Below are positions 16,119-64,000 of a stretch of DNA of 64,000 bases, in pieces. A program made the position numbers and the translations under genes. The stretch comes from an uncultured Holophagales bacterium (GTDB taxonomy: Bacteria > Acidobacteriota > Thermoanaerobaculia > Multivoradales > UBA5704), in the NCBI GenBank assembly GCA_963842525.1, contig CAWJGT010000009.1, positions 864,001 to 928,000 of the forward strand, in the 5' to 3' direction. The notes beneath the pieces were generated by a model, which searched no databases, had not been told where the DNA came from, and saw only the letters and a program-made list of their open reading frames with translations. Position 1 is the stretch's first letter; each line of letters opens with the position of its first letter.

Positions 16119-16415
16119 CTAACGCCGGCCGATCCAGTACTCGGGATGACGTTTCTGGTGAGCTACAGCCAGAATACGGATTCTACCTTTCGGGAGAGGG
16201 CGATACAGCAGGGAGTAGGGAAACTTGGGGAGAACGAGCCGCCGAGTGTTGCCTCGGATCTTCGGAGCAATCTCCGGATAATCCATGAGGAGCGCCACAC
16301 CAGCCTCTACCTCATCGAGGAAGCGACGACCAAGGCCGGGCACCTCTCGTTCATAGTGTTCGATCGCCTCGGCGAGCTCGCGCTCGGCCAAGCGATTGAA
16401 GATAGCGCCCCTCAT
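16119..16415 (-). CDS. RelE/ParE-family toxin
   Basis: AERELAEAIEHYE...GLGRRFLDEV...FPYSLLYR...ILAVAHQKRHPEYW. Confidence 0.9.
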   Translation of the reverse strand: MRGAIFNRLAERELAEAIEHYEREVPGLGRRFLDEVEAGVALLMDYPEIAPKIRGNTRRLVLPKFPYSLLYRPLPKGRIRILAVAHQKRHPEYWIGRR

Positions 16416-16648
16416 CCGAGAGACGAGCGGAGGCGCTGGAAGACCTCCTCAGCCGGAATCTCCGGCTCCTCTCCGCTCTCCATCGCCAGATCCCGGCGCT
16501 CCGCTTCCTCTGCCCAGACCTGGGCAACCCTCTCGTCGATCTCCAGACTATGCTCGTATTTCAGGAGCAGGCGCTCCAATAGCTCGGCGCGGTCTCCTGG
16601 AGGCAGCCTGAGGGCTTCGGCTTCGATCTCGTCGATCGTCAGGTTCAT
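16412..16648 (-). CDS. Addiction-module antitoxin (TIGR02574-like)
   Basis: EALRLPPGDRAELLERLL...WAEEAERR...IPAEEVF. Overlaps the toxin start. Confidence 0.88.
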   Translation of the reverse strand: MNLTIDEIEAEALRLPPGDRAELLERLLLKYEHSLEIDERVAQVWAEEAERRDLAMESGEEPEIPAEEVFQRLRSSLG

Positions 16649-16732
16649 AGGTTCCCCTCGGTCATTCCGATCTCGGCAACTCATATCTTATACTGCCATC
16701 GGAATACTTTCTACCCTTGCCGAGACCGGCCG

Positions 16733-18766: not shown

Positions 18767-19816
18767 ATGCCCAAGCGACTGGCGCTCTTCTTTGACGGGA
18801 CCTGGAACACCCCGGATTCCAACGAGGATGTCGACGGCGATAAGAACACCAACGTCTGCAGGCTGTATAAGGCGGTGCTGCCGGCCGGGGGCGGGACCAA
18901 GCAGGTCGCCTGGTACCAGGAAGGCGTCGGGACGAAGTGGTACAACCGGCTGCGGGGCGGCATTTTCGGCGTCGGCCTGTCGACCAACATCCAGAACGGC
19001 TACCGGTTCCTGATCGACAGCTACGAGCCGGGAGACGAGGTCTTCCTCTTCGGCTTCAGCCGGGGGGCCTATACGGCGCGCAGCCTCGTGGGACTGGTCC
19101 GCAACTCGGGCCTGCTCAAGAAGGAACACGCCTCCCTGGTGCCTCAGGCCTACTCCCTCTACCGGACCCGGGACAAAGAGGGCGGCGGAGCGGACTCGGC
19201 AAACGCGCGGTTCTTCCGCCAGAAGTATGCGCGCGACGCCAAGATCAAATGCCTCGGGGTCTGGGACACGGTCGGCGCGCTGGGCGTCCCCCTGTCATCC
19301 TTCGAGTGGTTCAACCGCTCCTACTATGCGTTCCATGACACGGAGCTGAGCGGCATCGTCGAGAACGCCTTCCACGCCCTCGCCATCGACGAGCACCGGG
19401 AGGACTACCCGGCGACGCTCTGGGCACCGAAGGCGAAGCCCAACCAGCGGATCGAGCAGGTCTGGTTCGCGGGTGCCCATTCCAACGTCGGAGGCGGCTA
19501 TACCGACAAGGTCCTGGCGGACATCACCTTGGACTGGATGGCCGGCCGGGCGACGTCCTGTGGTCTCATCTTCGACCGTGCGAAGCTCCCGCGCATCCAG
19601 GAGAGTAATGTCCGGGGAGCAGTCCGGGATTCGTACAAAGAGTTCATGGGTGGCAAGTACGCGAAGGCCCGCAAGCCCTACTACCGCGCGATCGGGTCCG
19701 CGGAGCATGGCTTCGAGGAGATCCACCCGTCGGTCGTCGGCCGGCTGGGAAGCGGCGGCTATTCGCTGGACAAGCACCGGGTGGGCAAGTTCGTCAAGGG
19801 CTTGCCGCAACGGTGA
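18767..19816 (+). CDS. DUF2235 (Tle1-like) alpha/beta hydrolase domain protein
   Basis: FFDGTWN, TNVCRLY, FGFSRGAYTARS, GVWDTVGALG, HALAIDEHR and WFAGAHSNVGGG. Confidence 0.92.
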   Translation: MPKRLALFFDGTWNTPDSNEDVDGDKNTNVCRLYKAVLPAGGGTKQVAWYQEGVGTKWYNRLRGGIFGVGLSTNIQNGYRFLIDSYEPGDEVFLFGFSRGAYTARSLVGLVRNSGLLKKEHASLVPQAYSLYRTRDKEGGGADSANARFFRQKYARDAKIKCLGVWDTVGALGVPLSSFEWFNRSYYAFHDTELSGIVENAFHALAIDEHREDYPATLWAPKAKPNQRIEQVWFAGAHSNVGGGYTDKVLADITLDWMAGRATSCGLIFDRAKLPRIQESNVRGAVRDSYKEFMGGKYAKARKPYYRAIGSAEHGFEEIHPSVVGRLGSGGYSLDKHRVGKFVKGLPQR

Positions 19817-19829
19817 ATGATTCTGGGCT

Positions 19830-19896
19830 TCACTCCTCCCGCAGCGCCAGGGACGGTGACGTGCGGGCCATCTTCCAGGCAGGGTAGAGGCCGGCG
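19830..19896 (-). repeat. Diverged duplicate of the last 67 bp of the ABC permease gene (att-like direct repeat, copy 1)
   Basis: 60/67 identical to 22535..22601. Encodes AGLYPAWKMARTSPSLALREE* versus [21 protein letters not shown]. Confidence 0.9.
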
Positions 19897-19935
19897 CCTC
19901 CCAGGCAGGAGCCAGGGGCGCGAGAGAGCGGCACG

Positions 19936-20385
19936 GATGAGCGTGGACGGCATGGATAGGCGTGTCTACGGCAGAGGATGTCATCTGTTCCGGATAAGCC
20001 TGGCCGCGCTGGATAGCGTTATCTGCGCTGGATAAGCTTATCTACGCCGGATAAGCTTATCCTGGCCCAGATAAGCTTATCTGCGGAGGATACGCTTATC
20101 CGTGGCGGATAGCGTTATCTACGGCAGATAAGCTTATCTACGGCGGATAGCCTTATCTGGGCCGGATAAGCTTATCCGCGGCGGATAACGTTATCTGCGC
20201 TGGATAAGCTTATCCGCGGCAGATAGGCTTATCCGCCGCGGATAGTGTTATCTGGGCTGGATAAGCTTATCCGGGCTGGATACCGCTATCTACGCCGGAT
20301 AAGCTTATCCGCGGGCGGATAACGTTATCTGGGGCGGATACGCTTAGCTGTACCGGATACGCTGATCCGCGCCGGATGACTTACG
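19936..20385. repeat. Tandem array of about 23-24 palindromes (consensus GATAAGCTTATC) with 7-nt variable spacers, 19-bp period
   Basis: Read directly, e.g. GATAAGCTTATC-TACGCCG, GATACGCTTATC-CGTGGCG, GATAACGTTATC-TGCGCTG. Degenerate at both ends. Confidence 0.95.
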
Positions 20386-20680
20386 CTGGCGCCGGTAAGG
20401 GTCTCTGCGATGGATACGGGCTGATTGCCTGCACCCGGAGGGATGCTGCGACGTTGCGCCGCCTGGCTTTGTGGGGAGGGAGCCTGGGCAGATCGACTGC
20501 GGAGGTGGCGGGAACAGACGACGGCGCCGGCTTCGTGGCGCTGCTGGCGCGGTTGCGGCCACGGAAGGGCTGCTGCTGGAGGAATGCCTGGATCGCCTCG
20601 TTGCGGACGCACATGCCTGCCAGCGCGGCGATGAGCCACGGCAGTGCTCCCAGCGTCCCTACATAGGCGAATTCAGTCAT
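20381..20680 (-). CDS. Small hypothetical protein, possibly an internally deleted remnant, ending at the palindrome array
   Basis: Purine-rich RBS (GAGAGGAAAGAGA-ATG). QPFRGR followed by a Pro/Ala/Ser-rich tail. Confidence 0.4.
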   Translation of the reverse strand: MTEFAYVGTLGALPWLIAALAGMCVRNEAIQAFLQQQPFRGRNRASSATKPAPSSVPATSAVDLPRLPPHKARRRNVAASLRVQAISPYPSQRPLPAPA

Positions 20681-21068
20681 TCTCTTTCCTCTCGTTCCTC
20701 ATCGGTCTCTGATGATACTCTGGATCGAAATCGACCTCGCAGCGCATGATAGGGATGAGGAACTCACAGTGGTCTCGACCGCGGCAATCAGCTCCTGGGC
20801 TTGCTGCTCGGGCGTACCCGCAGTTCCCGGCTGGGGAGTCGGCGGCGTGGCCGGCACACGCACTGGGTAGGGCTGGCCCGCCGACCTTGGTGCGGCCGTG
20901 ATCCGGTCCTCATGGTCTATGACGCTGCTGTCGGCGAGGAGGGCGGATGGGTGCAGGTCCACGCTGTCTTTGCCTGCATCCGGATTCGGGCCGAGGCCCG
21001 ATTGCGAATGAAGGCGTATTGGGCGTTAGGTAGGCATGGAGCGGGGGCGGAGCGCACTTCTTCTCAGC

Positions 21069-22133: not shown

Positions 22134-22338
22134 GGCTGTGCTCCTCTCTCAGAGGGAGTGGGGGTTCCCAGCGGGCTTCTCTTCCCCCCGTGCCTCTCTG
22201 GAAATTCTGTAGCGGCGCCGTTACGACGTCCAACCGCCCCACTACCGCCCAAGTCTACCTCAGGGAGTGCATGTTGGGCCCACGGTCCGCCCGTCCGGAA
22301 GCACCCCCCAACGGCTCCTGGAAATTGGGAGGCGCCAA

Positions 22339-22385
22339 CCTGGCGCTGAAGCGCCAGGCTTTATGCCCAGGCCCCTTCGGGGCCT
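22339..22385. repeat. REP-like double hairpin
   Basis: CCTGGCGC-TGAA-GCGCCAGG followed by AGGCCCC-TTC-GGGGCCT. Confidence 0.6.
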
Positions 22386-22534
22386 CTCCAATCGAAGCCG
22401 AGCGAATCTGACAAGGTAGGTTTAGGCGTCCCCCTATAATTGCCGGCCGACCTCACCCTTCCCATATATTTCTCGATAGTCTGTATCGAAGTTCTTTGTC
22501 GACAACCACGACTCGGTAGTAAGCGCCTTTCCGC

Positions 22535-25129
22535 TCACTCCTCCCGCAGCGCCAGAGCCGGCGACGTTCTGGCCATCCTCCAGGCCGGGTAGAGGCCGGC
22601 GAGGAGGGCGGCAGCGAGGGCCAGGAGGAGGGCCTGGAGGAGGATCTCGGGGGCGACTTCCATCCGAATGGTCCAGCCGAAAGAGCGCCGGTTGATCACG
22701 AAGATCATGATTGCCGCGAGCGCCAGGCCCACCGGGATCGACAGCAGGCCGGCGGCGAGTCCGATCAGGCCGGTCTGGGCCGTGATCAGCTCCCAGACCT
22801 GTCCCGGCGTGAGACCGTTGGCGCGAAGCACGCCGAGCTCCCGTGCCCGTTCGAGCTGCAGGGCCATCAGCGACGAGAGGACGCCCAGGAAGGCGACCAA
22901 TCCGGCCAGAAGCCGGAGCACGGCGGTGATCCGGAACGTGCGGTCGAAGACTTCGAGCGAGCCCTGCTTGAGGGCCCGGTTCGAGCGAAAGAGCACCGCC
23001 TGGTCTCCCAGGGCGGCGCGCAGGCGCTCGATCGTCGCGTCGGGATCCGCTCCCGGCGCAAGGTCCAGCGAAAAGCCTGAAAGCTTCGGATCGTTCCACC
23101 AGCGCAGGTAGGCAGGCCGGCTCATGAGGACGAGCCCCTGGTCCGAGGCGTAGTCGTAATAGACGCCTGCGATCCGGAAGGTCTGGTCGCCGCGGGCGGT
23201 CCGCAGCCGCAGGGTCGAGCCCGCCTCCACGCCGTGGCGGCGGGCGAACGGCTCGGACACGGCCACAGCCTCGCCGCGCTGGAACGCCGGCCAGACCTCG
23301 TCCGGGTCGCCGTCCAGCAGCTCGAAGGAGGAGGCCAGGCTCCGCTCGTCCGTGCCGAGAGCGAGCATGCGGACCGGCCCCTCGGGGGTCGGGATCTCGA
23401 CCCGCCGCAGCAGATGGACCCGCTCGACTCCGGGAAGCGCGGCAGTGCGGCGAGCTACCTCCGGATCGAGGTCGGCGCCCGCGAAGCCGCCGGCCCGGCT
23501 CAGGACGGAGGCGTAGATGTCGGACTGGAGCGACATCTCCAGCCAGCGCACGACCGTCTGCCGGAAGCTGCCGATCATGACTCCGATCCCGACCGTCACC
23601 GAGACGGCGATCACCAGCGCGGCGATGGCGACCGCGGTGCGCGACAGCGACGCGACCACGCCGCCGGCCGCCATTTTCCCCAGGATGCCGAACAGTGCTC
23701 CCATCGGGCGGCGGAGCAGGAGCATCAGCAAGACTGTCGCGCCAGGAGCTAGCAGGGCGCAGCCCAGGATGACCCCGAAGAGGCCCACGAAGCTCAGGAC
23801 CAGGCTGCCGGGGACGGCGAGGAGCACCGCGCCGGCCAGCAGGAGCCCGAGGCCGAGGAGCGTGGCGCGGGGCAGGGCCCTGCGCAGACGCGCCTCCAGG
23901 GCGGAGCGGGTGAGCACGGCGCGCGGCGGCGCCTGCGTGGCCTCCCAGGCCGGGGCCAGGGCGGCGAGCAGGGTCGCTCCGAGGCCGATCGCCGCCCCCT
24001 TGACCAGAGAGAAGAGCGGCAGGTCGAGGTCGCGCACGGACAGGACGAAGTAGAGGTCGTTGATCGTCTGCGTGGTCAGCCGCACGAGCTCGCGGCCGAG
24101 CAGGACGCCGCAGACCAGCCCCGCCGCGGTGCCGAGCACGGCCACGCCGAGCGCTTCGGCGAGCACCAGGGTGAAGACCTCGCGGCGGGTCACGCCCAGG
24201 GCGCGCAGCGTGCCGATCAGCGTCCGGCGCTGCACGACCGAAAAGGTCATGGTGTTGTAGATGAGGAAGACGCCGCAGACCAGGGCGAGCAGGGAAAGAG
24301 CGGTCAGATTCAGCCGGAAGGCGCTCGTCATCTCCTCCGTTGTCCGGGAGCGGCCCGCTGCCTGGAGGATCTGGGCTCCGGGCGGCAGGACGGCTTCAGC
24401 GCGGGCGAGGAGGCTGGCGCCGGCAGGTCCTTCCGGGGTGATCAGGTCGATGCGGTCGATCCGCCCGGCGCGGCCGAGCAGCTCCTGGGCCGCCGCGATG
24501 TCCATCACCAGGAGGTCGGCCAGCGCACGGCGGGTGTTGTCGTCGTCCGGCTCCAGGATGCCGGCGAGCTCGACGGTCTTTTCGGTATTGCCGATCCGCA
24601 CCACGAACCGGTCTCCGGGCCGGAGGCCCAGCTCCGCGGCGGTGAAGGAGGAGAGCACGGCCGCTCCCGGACGGGTGAGCAGGGGGCCGAGGTCGACGCC
24701 TCCTCCCCGATCCTCGGCACCGCGGGAGAGGGTGCCGGTTGCCCGAAGGTAAGGCCGGAACGGAGGCTCCGAAAAGGGATCGATTCCCAGGACGCGAAAC
24801 AAGCGGATCCCTTGGCCGGGCCGGCGGGGGATTGTGACGTATCCCTCGACCGCGGGGGCCATGGGCAACTCGCCGGCGAGCCCCGCATCCACCGCCAGCC
24901 GGCGGAAGACCGGATCGGGCAGCCCCTGCGGCCCGCCGACGATCTGATGAGTGGCGCGTCCGGTCACCGCCTCGGTCGAGAGCGCGAAGGCGCGGCTCGC
25001 GCTGGTGTTGGCAACGTCGATCGAGACCATGACGGCGACGCCGAGCGCCACGCCCAGGATGGCGAGCCCGATCTGCCAGGGGTGCCGGACGAGGTAGCGC
25101 CGGCTCGACCGCCAGAGGAGAGGCGTCAC
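22535..25129 (-). CDS. FtsX/MacB-type ABC transporter permease (duplicated FtsX domains)
   Basis: [44 protein letters not shown] and C-terminal [16 protein letters not shown]. Confidence 0.93.
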
Positions 25130-25824: not shown

Positions 25825-26243
25825 GCGGAGGCGAGACGGGTCCGGATCGCGTTCACGAAAGTCAGGAGATCGTCGAGATGGAAACGGACGATTTTCTCGA
25901 CTTCTGCCGGATCGACTCTCTCATAGCTATGGACGAGGATGTTGCGGAACCCCACCATCTTGCTCAGGGGCTCTGCGAGGTCTCTGGGAAGCCAGCCATA
26001 CCGCACCAGCAGCTCGAAAAAGCCACGGTTTGTATCGGGAACGCCGTAACGCTCGTCGGCCACGATGTGAGCGGCAATGTCGAGGGCGGCCTGGATTGCG
26101 ATCTGCAACGTACGCTCTTCGAATCGCTGCTCCCTGATGTCCGTCTGGAGCTCTTCTGGGTGAGCAAACGTCCGCAGCTCGCGAACGTAGGACTCGATAA
26201 GGGTGAGTTTCTTGTACACGAGATCGACATCGGTCACGATCAC
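25821..26243 (-). CDS. HepT-like (DUF86, HEPN) ribonuclease toxin
   Basis: [17 protein letters not shown] and FRNILVHSY (RxxxxH). GTGA overlap with the MNT stop. Confidence 0.9.
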
Positions 26244-26647
26244 GCTCCTGGCCGATAACACAGGCGAAGGTACGGTTCGAGATCCCAATATTCCTTGTGC
26301 GAGCGGACCTCGAAGCGGATACGTCGAGAGCGGTCTCGCTCCACGAGCAGCCTGCCGTCGCGCAGCACCCGGAAGATCAGGTCGACAGGCGCGCGGTTCA
26401 GGACGACGACCTGGGTGGGAAGCCCGAGAGCTACGGTCAGGTCTTCTTCGAGGTCGAAGGCGCGCCCGATCTCGTCGAGGGTCTGAGGCCGGTTCTCGCT
26501 GTACAGGATGCCGACATCGACGTCGCTGTCCGGCCGGGCGGTCCCCCGGGCCACACTGCCGAAGAGCCACGCCGCGGCGATCCCCTCCGCCTCCGCCCGG
26601 GCGGACAGGACCTCCCGCAGCTTCCTCTCGATCGCCGCCACGTCCAT
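26240..26647 (-). CDS. MntA-like minimal nucleotidyltransferase antitoxin
   Basis: LFGSVARG..RPDSDVDVGIL. Confidence 0.9.
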   Translation of the reverse strand: MDVAAIERKLREVLSARAEAEGIAAAWLFGSVARGTARPDSDVDVGILYSENRPQTLDEIGRAFDLEEDLTVALGLPTQVVVLNRAPVDLIFRVLRDGRLLVERDRSRRIRFEVRSHKEYWDLEPYLRLCYRPGA

Positions 26648-63483: not shown

Positions 63484-64000
63484 GACCGGGGCCGGAAGCT
63501 CCCTGCCCCGGCTTCACGCACCCCGGACCGCGCGCCGGATGCCGGGGGTCGCGCCGCGAGCCCCGCTGCTCGCGGTCACCCCCTGATCGACCGCAGGCGG
63601 CGGCGCATTGACACCGTTCGGTGGGCCGCCGCCCGCGGCCCCTGCTTCGTTGGCAGCGGTCCGCATCCCGTTGACCGCGGTCAACGCGTCAAAGCCCGCG
63701 ATCCGGATGCCGGCGACCGCGTGGAGAGTCTCGCTGCTCGAGGTCAGCGCCTCGCCGACCACGGTCGGCGGCTCATGGACCGCGGTCCGCGGTCCATGGA
63801 CCCATGGCAACGCCTCGCCGTCCGCGATCCGGATTCCATGGACTGCGGTCGACAGCATCAGGCTCGCGGTCGATGACTCAGCGACCGCAGCCGGCGGCTC
63901 GTTGCTTGCGGTCAACGTCACGGCGACCGCGGTCCCAGGCTTCGTGACCGCGGTCTGCGACCCGTTGCCTGCTGTCTCTGAGCCATGGAGCGCTGTCAGC
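63484..64000. repeat. Tandem array of about 25 palindromic cores (consensus GACCGCGGTC) at a 21-bp period, running off the window edge
   Basis: Cores fall at about 63484+21n. Perfect GACCGCGGTC at 63673, 63778, 63925 and 63946. The 11-nt spacers are variable. Confidence 0.85.

Follow-up and report, generated by a model that had tools for sequence, protein, structure and literature searches.

Non-coding tandem repeats with a constant unit length of 20-21 nt and a variable sequence have been described in many groups of bacteria (Subirana and Messeguer, PMC8161180). The covered parts of that article give units of 20-23 nt across bacteria and families that allow ±1 nt, call the function unknown, suggest either a polymerising protein or small RNAs, and relate the unit length to two helical turns. 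The terms "Acidobacter", "coiled" and "ArgR" are absent from its main text, and the parts covered name no linked gene. Here we describe an array in a 64,000-nucleotide stretch of DNA (the window) from the genome G000 which, compared with the covered parts of PMC8161180, is likewise non-coding, shares its genome with many families that are equal in unit length but differ in sequence, is largely species-specific, being limited to kin, and carries a short motif in most units. In contrast to the repeats described there, the arrays in this genome have mostly a 19-bp period and are tied to a defined cassette and to the genes that we call A, B and the ArgR paralogue. The array is thus a constant-size repeat by the published description, except that its period lies at the edge of the described range, and the cassette is undescribed, no account of it having been found in the literature searched, which was thin on subscription journals. 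The family ties constant-length repeats to two small, expressible, Pfam-less proteins, A and B, as candidate binders, and it supplies natural cognate and non-cognate protein-array pairs with periods of 19, 20 and 21 bp that are directly testable in vitro. The idea of two helical turns can likewise be put to the test with the 19-bp period.

Several other systems share some of these features. Plasmid centromeres and iterons (sopC, parC, tubC, and the P1 and F iterons) are periodic, partly palindromic sites located beside a small protein gene. Unlike them, the present arrays have no motor or Rep gene, occur in many dispersed chromosomal copies, and turn over in sequence while the protein motif stays. 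REP/BIME and MITE elements are dispersed, palindromic, intergenic, species-specific and non-autonomous, whereas the arrays considered here consist of head-to-tail units of fixed period, lack fixed ends and terminal inverted repeats, and carry a protein gene along. The closest analogue of gene B with its upstream arrays, compared by description, is KfrA of plasmid RA3, which is alpha-helical, forms oligomers and binds DNA, and has a repetitive operator (covered part of PMC7783346). KfrA is plasmid-borne and linked to segrosome proteins, whereas protein A has no helix-turn-helix and the arrays are of about 20 units, those of A type lying past a terminator.

The window array consists of 24 tandem units at 19935-20387 (unit starts 19935-20374, no strand assigned) with a period of 19 bp, as determined by unit mapping, TRF (period 19, score 233) and shuffles. 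Nineteen of the 23 intervals between units measure 19 bp and two measure 20 bp, while one pair measures 22 and 16 bp. Perfect GATA-N4-TATC cores occur 17 times consecutively (20012-20329), where 0.09 are expected from 100 shuffles of the window, and the units become degenerate at both ends. The initial annotation had counted about 23-24 units at this period, which these data bear out. It had also described the spacers and the inner 4 nt as free to vary, and here it was mistaken. The unit is an RGATA-N4-TATCY core plus a 5-nt GC-rich linker; the 7-nt spacer (Y + 5 nt + R) has the family consensus R-S-C-G-Y on the minus strand at 0.65-1.03 bits per position, AGCT occupies the inner positions in 8/17 window cores and 61/168 family cores, and every unit position is informative across the 221 19-bp units of the array family. 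The unit is polar, with 1.56-1.69 bits in the right half (TTATC) and 0.93 bits at positions 2-3 of the left half, and the polarity of the window array was set relative to its minus-strand gene A remnant. The array is non-coding, with 6-11 stops in every one of the six frames and a longest open stretch of 42 codons. The earlier statement that it cannot be coding therefore holds on the evidence of the stops, although the spacing from which it was drawn is insufficient alone, three 19-bp units adding up to 57 nt. A CRISPR array, which requires identical repeats and unique spacers of about 25-45 nt, is excluded by the 5-nt consensus linkers, in line with the original remark that the spacers are too short. 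DNA contigs from four independent soil studies contain parts of the array and of its flank, which makes an assembly artefact unlikely.

One reading of such an array, raised at the outset, is that of a multi-hairpin RNA or single-stranded DNA, or a protein sponge. The array folds strongly on the minus strand, with z = -14 against shuffles that do not keep the repeat, and better on the plus strand (-279.5 vs -239 kcal/mol); some satellites are also transcribed according to the covered parts of PMC8161180. However, a strong fold is trivial for repeated palindromes. Compensatory pairing is absent, with R-Y within the core anti-correlated (p=0.03) and cross-spacer pairs independent, and no strand is preferred across families (23/42). 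An Rfam scan of the window gave 0 matches, and in intact copies of the cassette a terminator stands ahead of the array. Self-complementarity above controls is found in only 51/88 arrays, and palindromy was accordingly rejected as a universal feature. We consider the RNA reading improbable, the searches having yielded no positive support for it.

The array is part of a larger feature. The initial annotation placed it at 19936-20385, where an array does indeed lie, but alignment to sister copies extends the whole cassette copy, with leader, gene A remnant and array, over 19927-20762 on the minus strand. This copy is 88% identical to G000:C1:200359-201239 and about 90% identical to the shorter G000:C3:632174-632688, and the array can be aligned unit for unit with that of one sister copy over 18 units. 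Comparison with intact copies shows that gene A is broken here: the 99-aa open reading frame at 20381-20680 (minus strand) retains ~35 residues at the N-terminus and, at the C-terminus, the QPFRGR motif, has two internal deletions, has lost its own stop and terminator, and runs into non-coding DNA. The leader (20681-20762, minus strand), as read from the sequence, contains a -10-like hexamer (20746-20751) as well as a ribosome-binding site. It lacks the TTGACA -35 hexamer carried by the sister copy because the similarity ends at 20762, and a promoter scan of the leader found no complete promoter. The window copy is a decayed, non-autonomous member of the cassette family.

The cassette copy sits inside a 2.7-kb segment bracketed by the 3' end of an 864-aa ABC permease gene (22535-25129; the 3' end itself at 22535-22601, minus strand) on the right and a 67-bp, 90% identical duplicate of that 3' end (19830-19896, minus strand) on the left. 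Both sister copies adjoin comparable local duplications. A general pattern of duplicated gene 3' ends holds in part only: 9/26 duplications touch the stop codon of a long open reading frame, and 11 have no called long open reading frame. Just left of the array, a gene at 18767-19816 (plus strand) encodes a DUF2235 / T6SS Tle1-like phospholipase domain (PF09994, E 1e-83) and shows short similarity only, in two congeners; the other neighbour is a 354-aa open reading frame with sub-threshold Pfam matches only. The segment also contains a multi-copy palindromic REP-like element outside the array family (22313-22428, no strand assigned), which is very abundant in soil contigs. A copy at G000:C1:202699-202878 adjoins a 124-bp copy of the array distal end, past the stop of an aldehyde dehydrogenase-like gene.

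The genome-wide search called for by the initial annotation shows that the window array is not unique. G000 contains 18 dispersed related arrays, of which 14 have a predominant period of 19 and the other four one of 20; in the 14 arrays, which are of A type, the unit measures 19 bp in 221/274 cases, 20 bp in 50 and 21 bp in 3. The exact two-unit pattern was found in 0/40 relatives, and a related period-20 family occurs in 1/5 congeners. The names attached to homologues assign the lineage to Thermoanaerobaculia. A-type genes or remnants flank 12/18 arrays of this GATA family and B genes 2/18. This dispersal bears on the suggestion, made originally, of a centromere (parS- or sopC-like) or an iteron array. 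The arrangement of a small helical protein gene beside a palindromic repeat array does resemble partition loci, and the winged helix of protein B has a weak TubR match (E 0.08). However, the 18 copies are scattered, the 22 neighbour clusters that recur most often around 148 A loci include no NTPase or Rep gene, and a search of viral contigs gave 46 pattern matches and 0 confirmed relatives of A. An iteron origin was rejected, with the DUF2235 gene and the 354-aa open reading frame in the place of an adjacent Rep gene and no AT-rich unwinding element adjoining the array, whose 500-nt bin has 57% GC within surroundings of 57-66%. The centromere or iteron proposal thus fails, and we regard it as very improbable.

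The arrays of G000 as a whole allow a further reading, that of a hitch-hiking satellite without a reader, which would arise and be kept uniform through slippage and conversion, its step being dictated by the machinery of replication or repair, and would collect in variable islands beside expanded gene families. The non-coding arrays number 181, in 20 multi-member families and 29 singles; 150/181 have neither an A nor a B gene within 700 nt, and 11/20 multi-member families have no linked member at all. Members of most families have little or no flank in common, and copies have many different start and end points and lack the fixed ends, terminal inverted repeats and target duplication required of a MITE or insertion sequence, both of which were ruled out. 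Arrays lie near local direct duplications in 5/18 and 36/192 cases, against 24/300 controls, and the same kind of repeat is found in unrelated phyla (covered parts of PMC8161180; GTDB matches). A satellite without a reader leaves unexplained the fixed position of arrays just past the gene A terminator (58/70 loci), the polar motif common to unrelated B arrays, and the different positions conserved in period-19 and period-20 members. We judge the satellite reading, the main rival of the docking lattice, to be on the unlikely side, while deserving serious weight.

Divergence within the family bears on both this and the docking reading set out below. When the window array is compared with its sister copy, 2/144 sites of the GATA/TATC core and 21/365 sites of the flank differ (p=0.03, by an alignment that favours well-matching units), whereas the R/Y edge positions diverge faster than the flank (6/36, p=0.025). 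This fast R/Y toggling suggests conversion, as a satellite would undergo, and conversion could also preserve the core without selection. A binding-site lattice, as originally suggested, is still the best reading of the array, with the reservation that gene conversion can mimic the slow divergence of the core. The constraint also differs between members: the four period-20 arrays keep CCGCR 12-14 times, in nearly every unit (0-3 times on the opposite strand); in the 14 period-19 arrays it occurs 1-8 times, and the palindrome is kept instead. In the window array the CCGCR motif is decayed, with 5 sense and 5 antisense occurrences.

Similar arrays occur elsewhere. Independent GATA-N4-TATC arrays of period 20 are present in Saprospiraceae (L039, L049, L050) and Holophagales (L044, L048), which account for 11 and 2 of 18 GTDB matches. 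Three of these arrays closely precede an unnamed gene of 169-174 aa, and the L048 array has a boxA-like motif and a hairpin upstream. The Saprospiraceae gene has no detectable relation to A by profile comparison and no match in the ESM Atlas. In the window itself, a second and more degenerate array at 63640-64000 (TRF: 63757-63802) has a period of about 21 and GACCGCGGTC palindromes and apparently runs to the window end. The largest array family of G000, with 25 members and a GGGACC..GGTCC core, is similar to this second array; its core may resemble the sopC site of the F plasmid.

Flank alignments of the cassette give the order GC hairpins, an outward boxA-like motif, back-to-back promoter-like sequences, a hairpin leader with ribosome-binding site, gene A, a hairpin and T-tract terminator, and the array; the full cassette adds an ArgR-like gene ahead of the back-to-back promoters. 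The boxA-like motif, present at 31/129 A loci with enough upstream DNA, resembles motifs in the rRNA leader and spacer of G000 as well as the consensus given in the covered part of PMC5725501. Many A genes (e.g., at L057, L058, L061 and L066) have a conserved two-hairpin leader before the ribosome-binding site, CCGGCGYC...GRCGCCGG followed by GAGCCC...GGGCTC, which is possibly a cis-regulatory RNA. At G000:C24:153034-153549, an A-type leader and start codon are followed immediately by a 21-bp array, which can be read as a heptad-repeat open reading frame replacing gene A.

Gene A encodes a helical protein of 124 aa without a Pfam family above cut-off. Its AlphaFold2 model (pLDDT 85) predicts helices at residues 6-22, 28-87 and 92-97 and a less ordered tail, that is, a short helix, a 60-residue helix, a short helix and a basic PFRGR tail. 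P..RGR is present in 192/265 A proteins, and the gene family has 1073 representatives at 50% identity. Gene A was found in 22/24 genomes of the family and 0/16 others of the order, and in a phylum sample in which 13 candidates were scored per genome, 1/300 other genomes carried it, that one being a family member. A tree of 88 A proteins was made quickly and has many open forks, and serves as a view only. Searches with Pfam, PDB sequences and folds found no recognisable DNA-binding fold: no PDB sequence matched better than E 0.04, Foldseek gave no match at E<=0.001 in PDB or BFVD, and a wide fold search (VIA) returned generic helical bundles only (best Z 6.9). A search of the ESM Atlas yielded unnamed Acidobacteriota clusters only, with DUF6261 (0.77) as a lead. 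The YG..SEKL motif of A presumably resembles the IS66 leucine zipper; IS66 is absent among the 25 of 53 Pfam families listed for A.

The nucleoid proteins H-NS and Lsr2 combine a helical oligomerisation region with a basic Q/RGR motif. Protein A is alike in having a predicted helical oligomerisation region and a basic RGR motif, and unlike H-NS it has no folded C-terminal domain, while H-NS is not known to have linked repeat arrays. Pfam Histone_HNS_N scores in 26/71 A members with a best E of 3e-4, below cut-off, and hhalign of the A profile with a single E. coli H-NS sequence gave a probability of 0.1%. Homology of A to H-NS is thus unsupported by sequence comparison.

Gene A and arrays are linked across the family. 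In G000 an array lies downstream at 22/40 A loci and upstream at 5, while random windows contain one in 68/1500 cases; in relatives and metagenomes, counted over best-hit loci in which kin are not independent, an array lies downstream at 58/70 A loci and upstream at 10/85. The array begins beyond the hairpin and T-tract terminator, at a median of about 75 nt from the A stop, and is therefore off the A mRNA by default. All 51 array families have a period of 19-21 (or 38-42), while the sequence turns over. Array units are alike in 49/58 pairs of A proteins that are at least 70% identical and in about 1% of pairs below 60% identity, a relationship that would be expected from physical linkage alone and that does not demonstrate co-evolution. 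The 37 A-linked downstream families have no common motif, so the conserved C-terminal motif of A cannot read one fixed sequence. A single AT-rich patch per unit reaches significance in 15/51 families (4% and 3% in two control sets of about 400 segments each) and does not in the remaining 36/51. The arrays conserve their period and position and, in many cases, an AT-rich patch in each unit, but not RNA pairing.

Gene B, which is also Pfam-less, is modelled as a long helix with a predicted winged-helix domain, for which Foldseek gives Fur/PadR-like matches at a probability of about 1.0 and E 0.006 or weaker. B genes lie directly downstream of two period-20 arrays of the GATA family. Among B genes in relatives, 20/30 have upstream arrays by a loose filter, a count that includes one run of N and two copies from G000 itself, and 15 by a stricter filter. 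The B arrays carry a polar CGCA in 6/11 unrelated families and CGCAA in 5/11.

ArgR-family genes are found divergently upstream at 31/148 A loci. G000 has six PF01316 matches, of which one is the canonical argR before argG and five are extra paralogues (G000:C32:139617-140075, C19:423926-424378, C3:1238069-1238536, C3:1133262-1133744 and C24:152472-152918); opposite three paralogues lies an intact A gene, and opposite another is an array that follows an A-like leader. Of the ArgR gene, the GATA clade retains only the first codons (MMPIDR, vs MPIDR in the intact C24 paralogue). The GDD loop, which we assume to be the arginine-binding site of ArgR, is often altered in the paralogues (GED, GEN, GDS), suggesting that arginine sensing may have been changed or lost. 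Matches to the ARG consensus with at most 2 mismatches occur at 17/31 ArgR-flanked A promoters, 23/110 without ArgR and 12/99 downstream controls, which weakly supports a regulation of the cassette promoters by the paralogue. An ARG-box reading of the array was rejected: the unit does not match the TGCAT-N4-ATGCG palindrome of the canonical argR promoter, and the recognition segment does not co-vary with the arrays.

These proteins are among the candidates for another reading, in which the lattice would be read sequence-specifically, at GATA-N4-TATC or the linker, by another dimer (a B-type winged helix, the ArgR paralogue or a host factor), with A as a passenger or co-polymer. A dimer would fit the 5-4-5 palindrome, S-C-G-Y-R is retained in the linker on one strand, Saprospiraceae and Holophagales have GATA-N4-TATC arrays as well, and four arrays of the family are of the period-20 B type, two of these immediately preceding B genes. 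On the other hand, the ArgR recognition segment Q-S/P-S-I/V/L-SRDL is near-invariant (30/31) while the arrays differ wholly, which makes ArgR an unlikely array reader. The mismatch with the argR palindrome and the decay of the B motif in the window copy also count against recognition by another dimer. So does the lack of DnaA boxes, whose high-affinity consensus is TTATCCACA and which near dnaA in G000 are TTTTCCACA-like: no array contains a perfect box, and the window array has none within one mismatch. A DnaA-box cluster was itself rejected, with 0/4 perfect boxes and 43/416 one-mismatch sites lying inside arrays. We think a separate dimeric reader distinctly unlikely.

Taken together, the sequence comparisons point to the array as a periodic docking lattice, where an oligomeric protein made in trans by intact cassette copies at other genomic sites would bind double-stranded DNA; to this reading we give a little less than an even chance. 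Protein A would oligomerise through its long helix, and its RGR tail would grip one AT-rich patch per unit (ATAAGCTTAT here) in the style of an AT-hook, so that the oligomer and its grip would fix the spacing and leave the sequence free. The arrays may be homogenised by unit-to-unit conversion and may spread as fragments with variable lengths of the cassette, unlike a fixed-end transposon, while the ArgR paralogue would regulate promoters instead of reading the array. The docking lattice is favoured by the slow divergence of the core, the fixed position, and the partner-specific constraint seen in CCGCR vs the palindrome and in the polar B motif. Against it stand the orphan arrays (150/181), the lack of a common motif in the 37 A-linked families, conversion as an alternative explanation of the slow core, the lack of a recognisable DNA-binding fold in A, and the broken A copy of the window. 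In addition, a step of 19 bp corresponds to about 1.8 helical turns, which makes successive sites drift off one face of the helix. Going further, A and B may be the first candidate readers of constant-period satellites, forming "chromatin cassettes" in which a coiled-coil polymer with AT-hook-like tails would act as a 19-21-bp ruler with its own docking array and an ArgR paralogue as switch, and in which dozens of diverged copies, together with orphan arrays, would serve to organise, silence or mark chromosome islands. We put this wider proposal forward tentatively, as a possibility that is more doubtful than docking itself.

Two minor observations concern other genes. A 445-aa open reading frame, which seems to resemble a group II intron reverse transcriptase, is present in two copies, at G000:C19:363282-364619 and on C6 near 149500-150850; one copy lies at a distance of about 1.1 kb from a GATA array, the other beside a truncated ArgR paralogue. 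Within the window, small gene pairs of toxin-antitoxin appearance lie at 16119-16684 and 25878-26647. One pair includes a nucleotidyltransferase (Pfam PF18765), presumably with a HEPN-like partner, and a RelE/ParE-like protein with an addiction-module partner is our presumptive label for the other.
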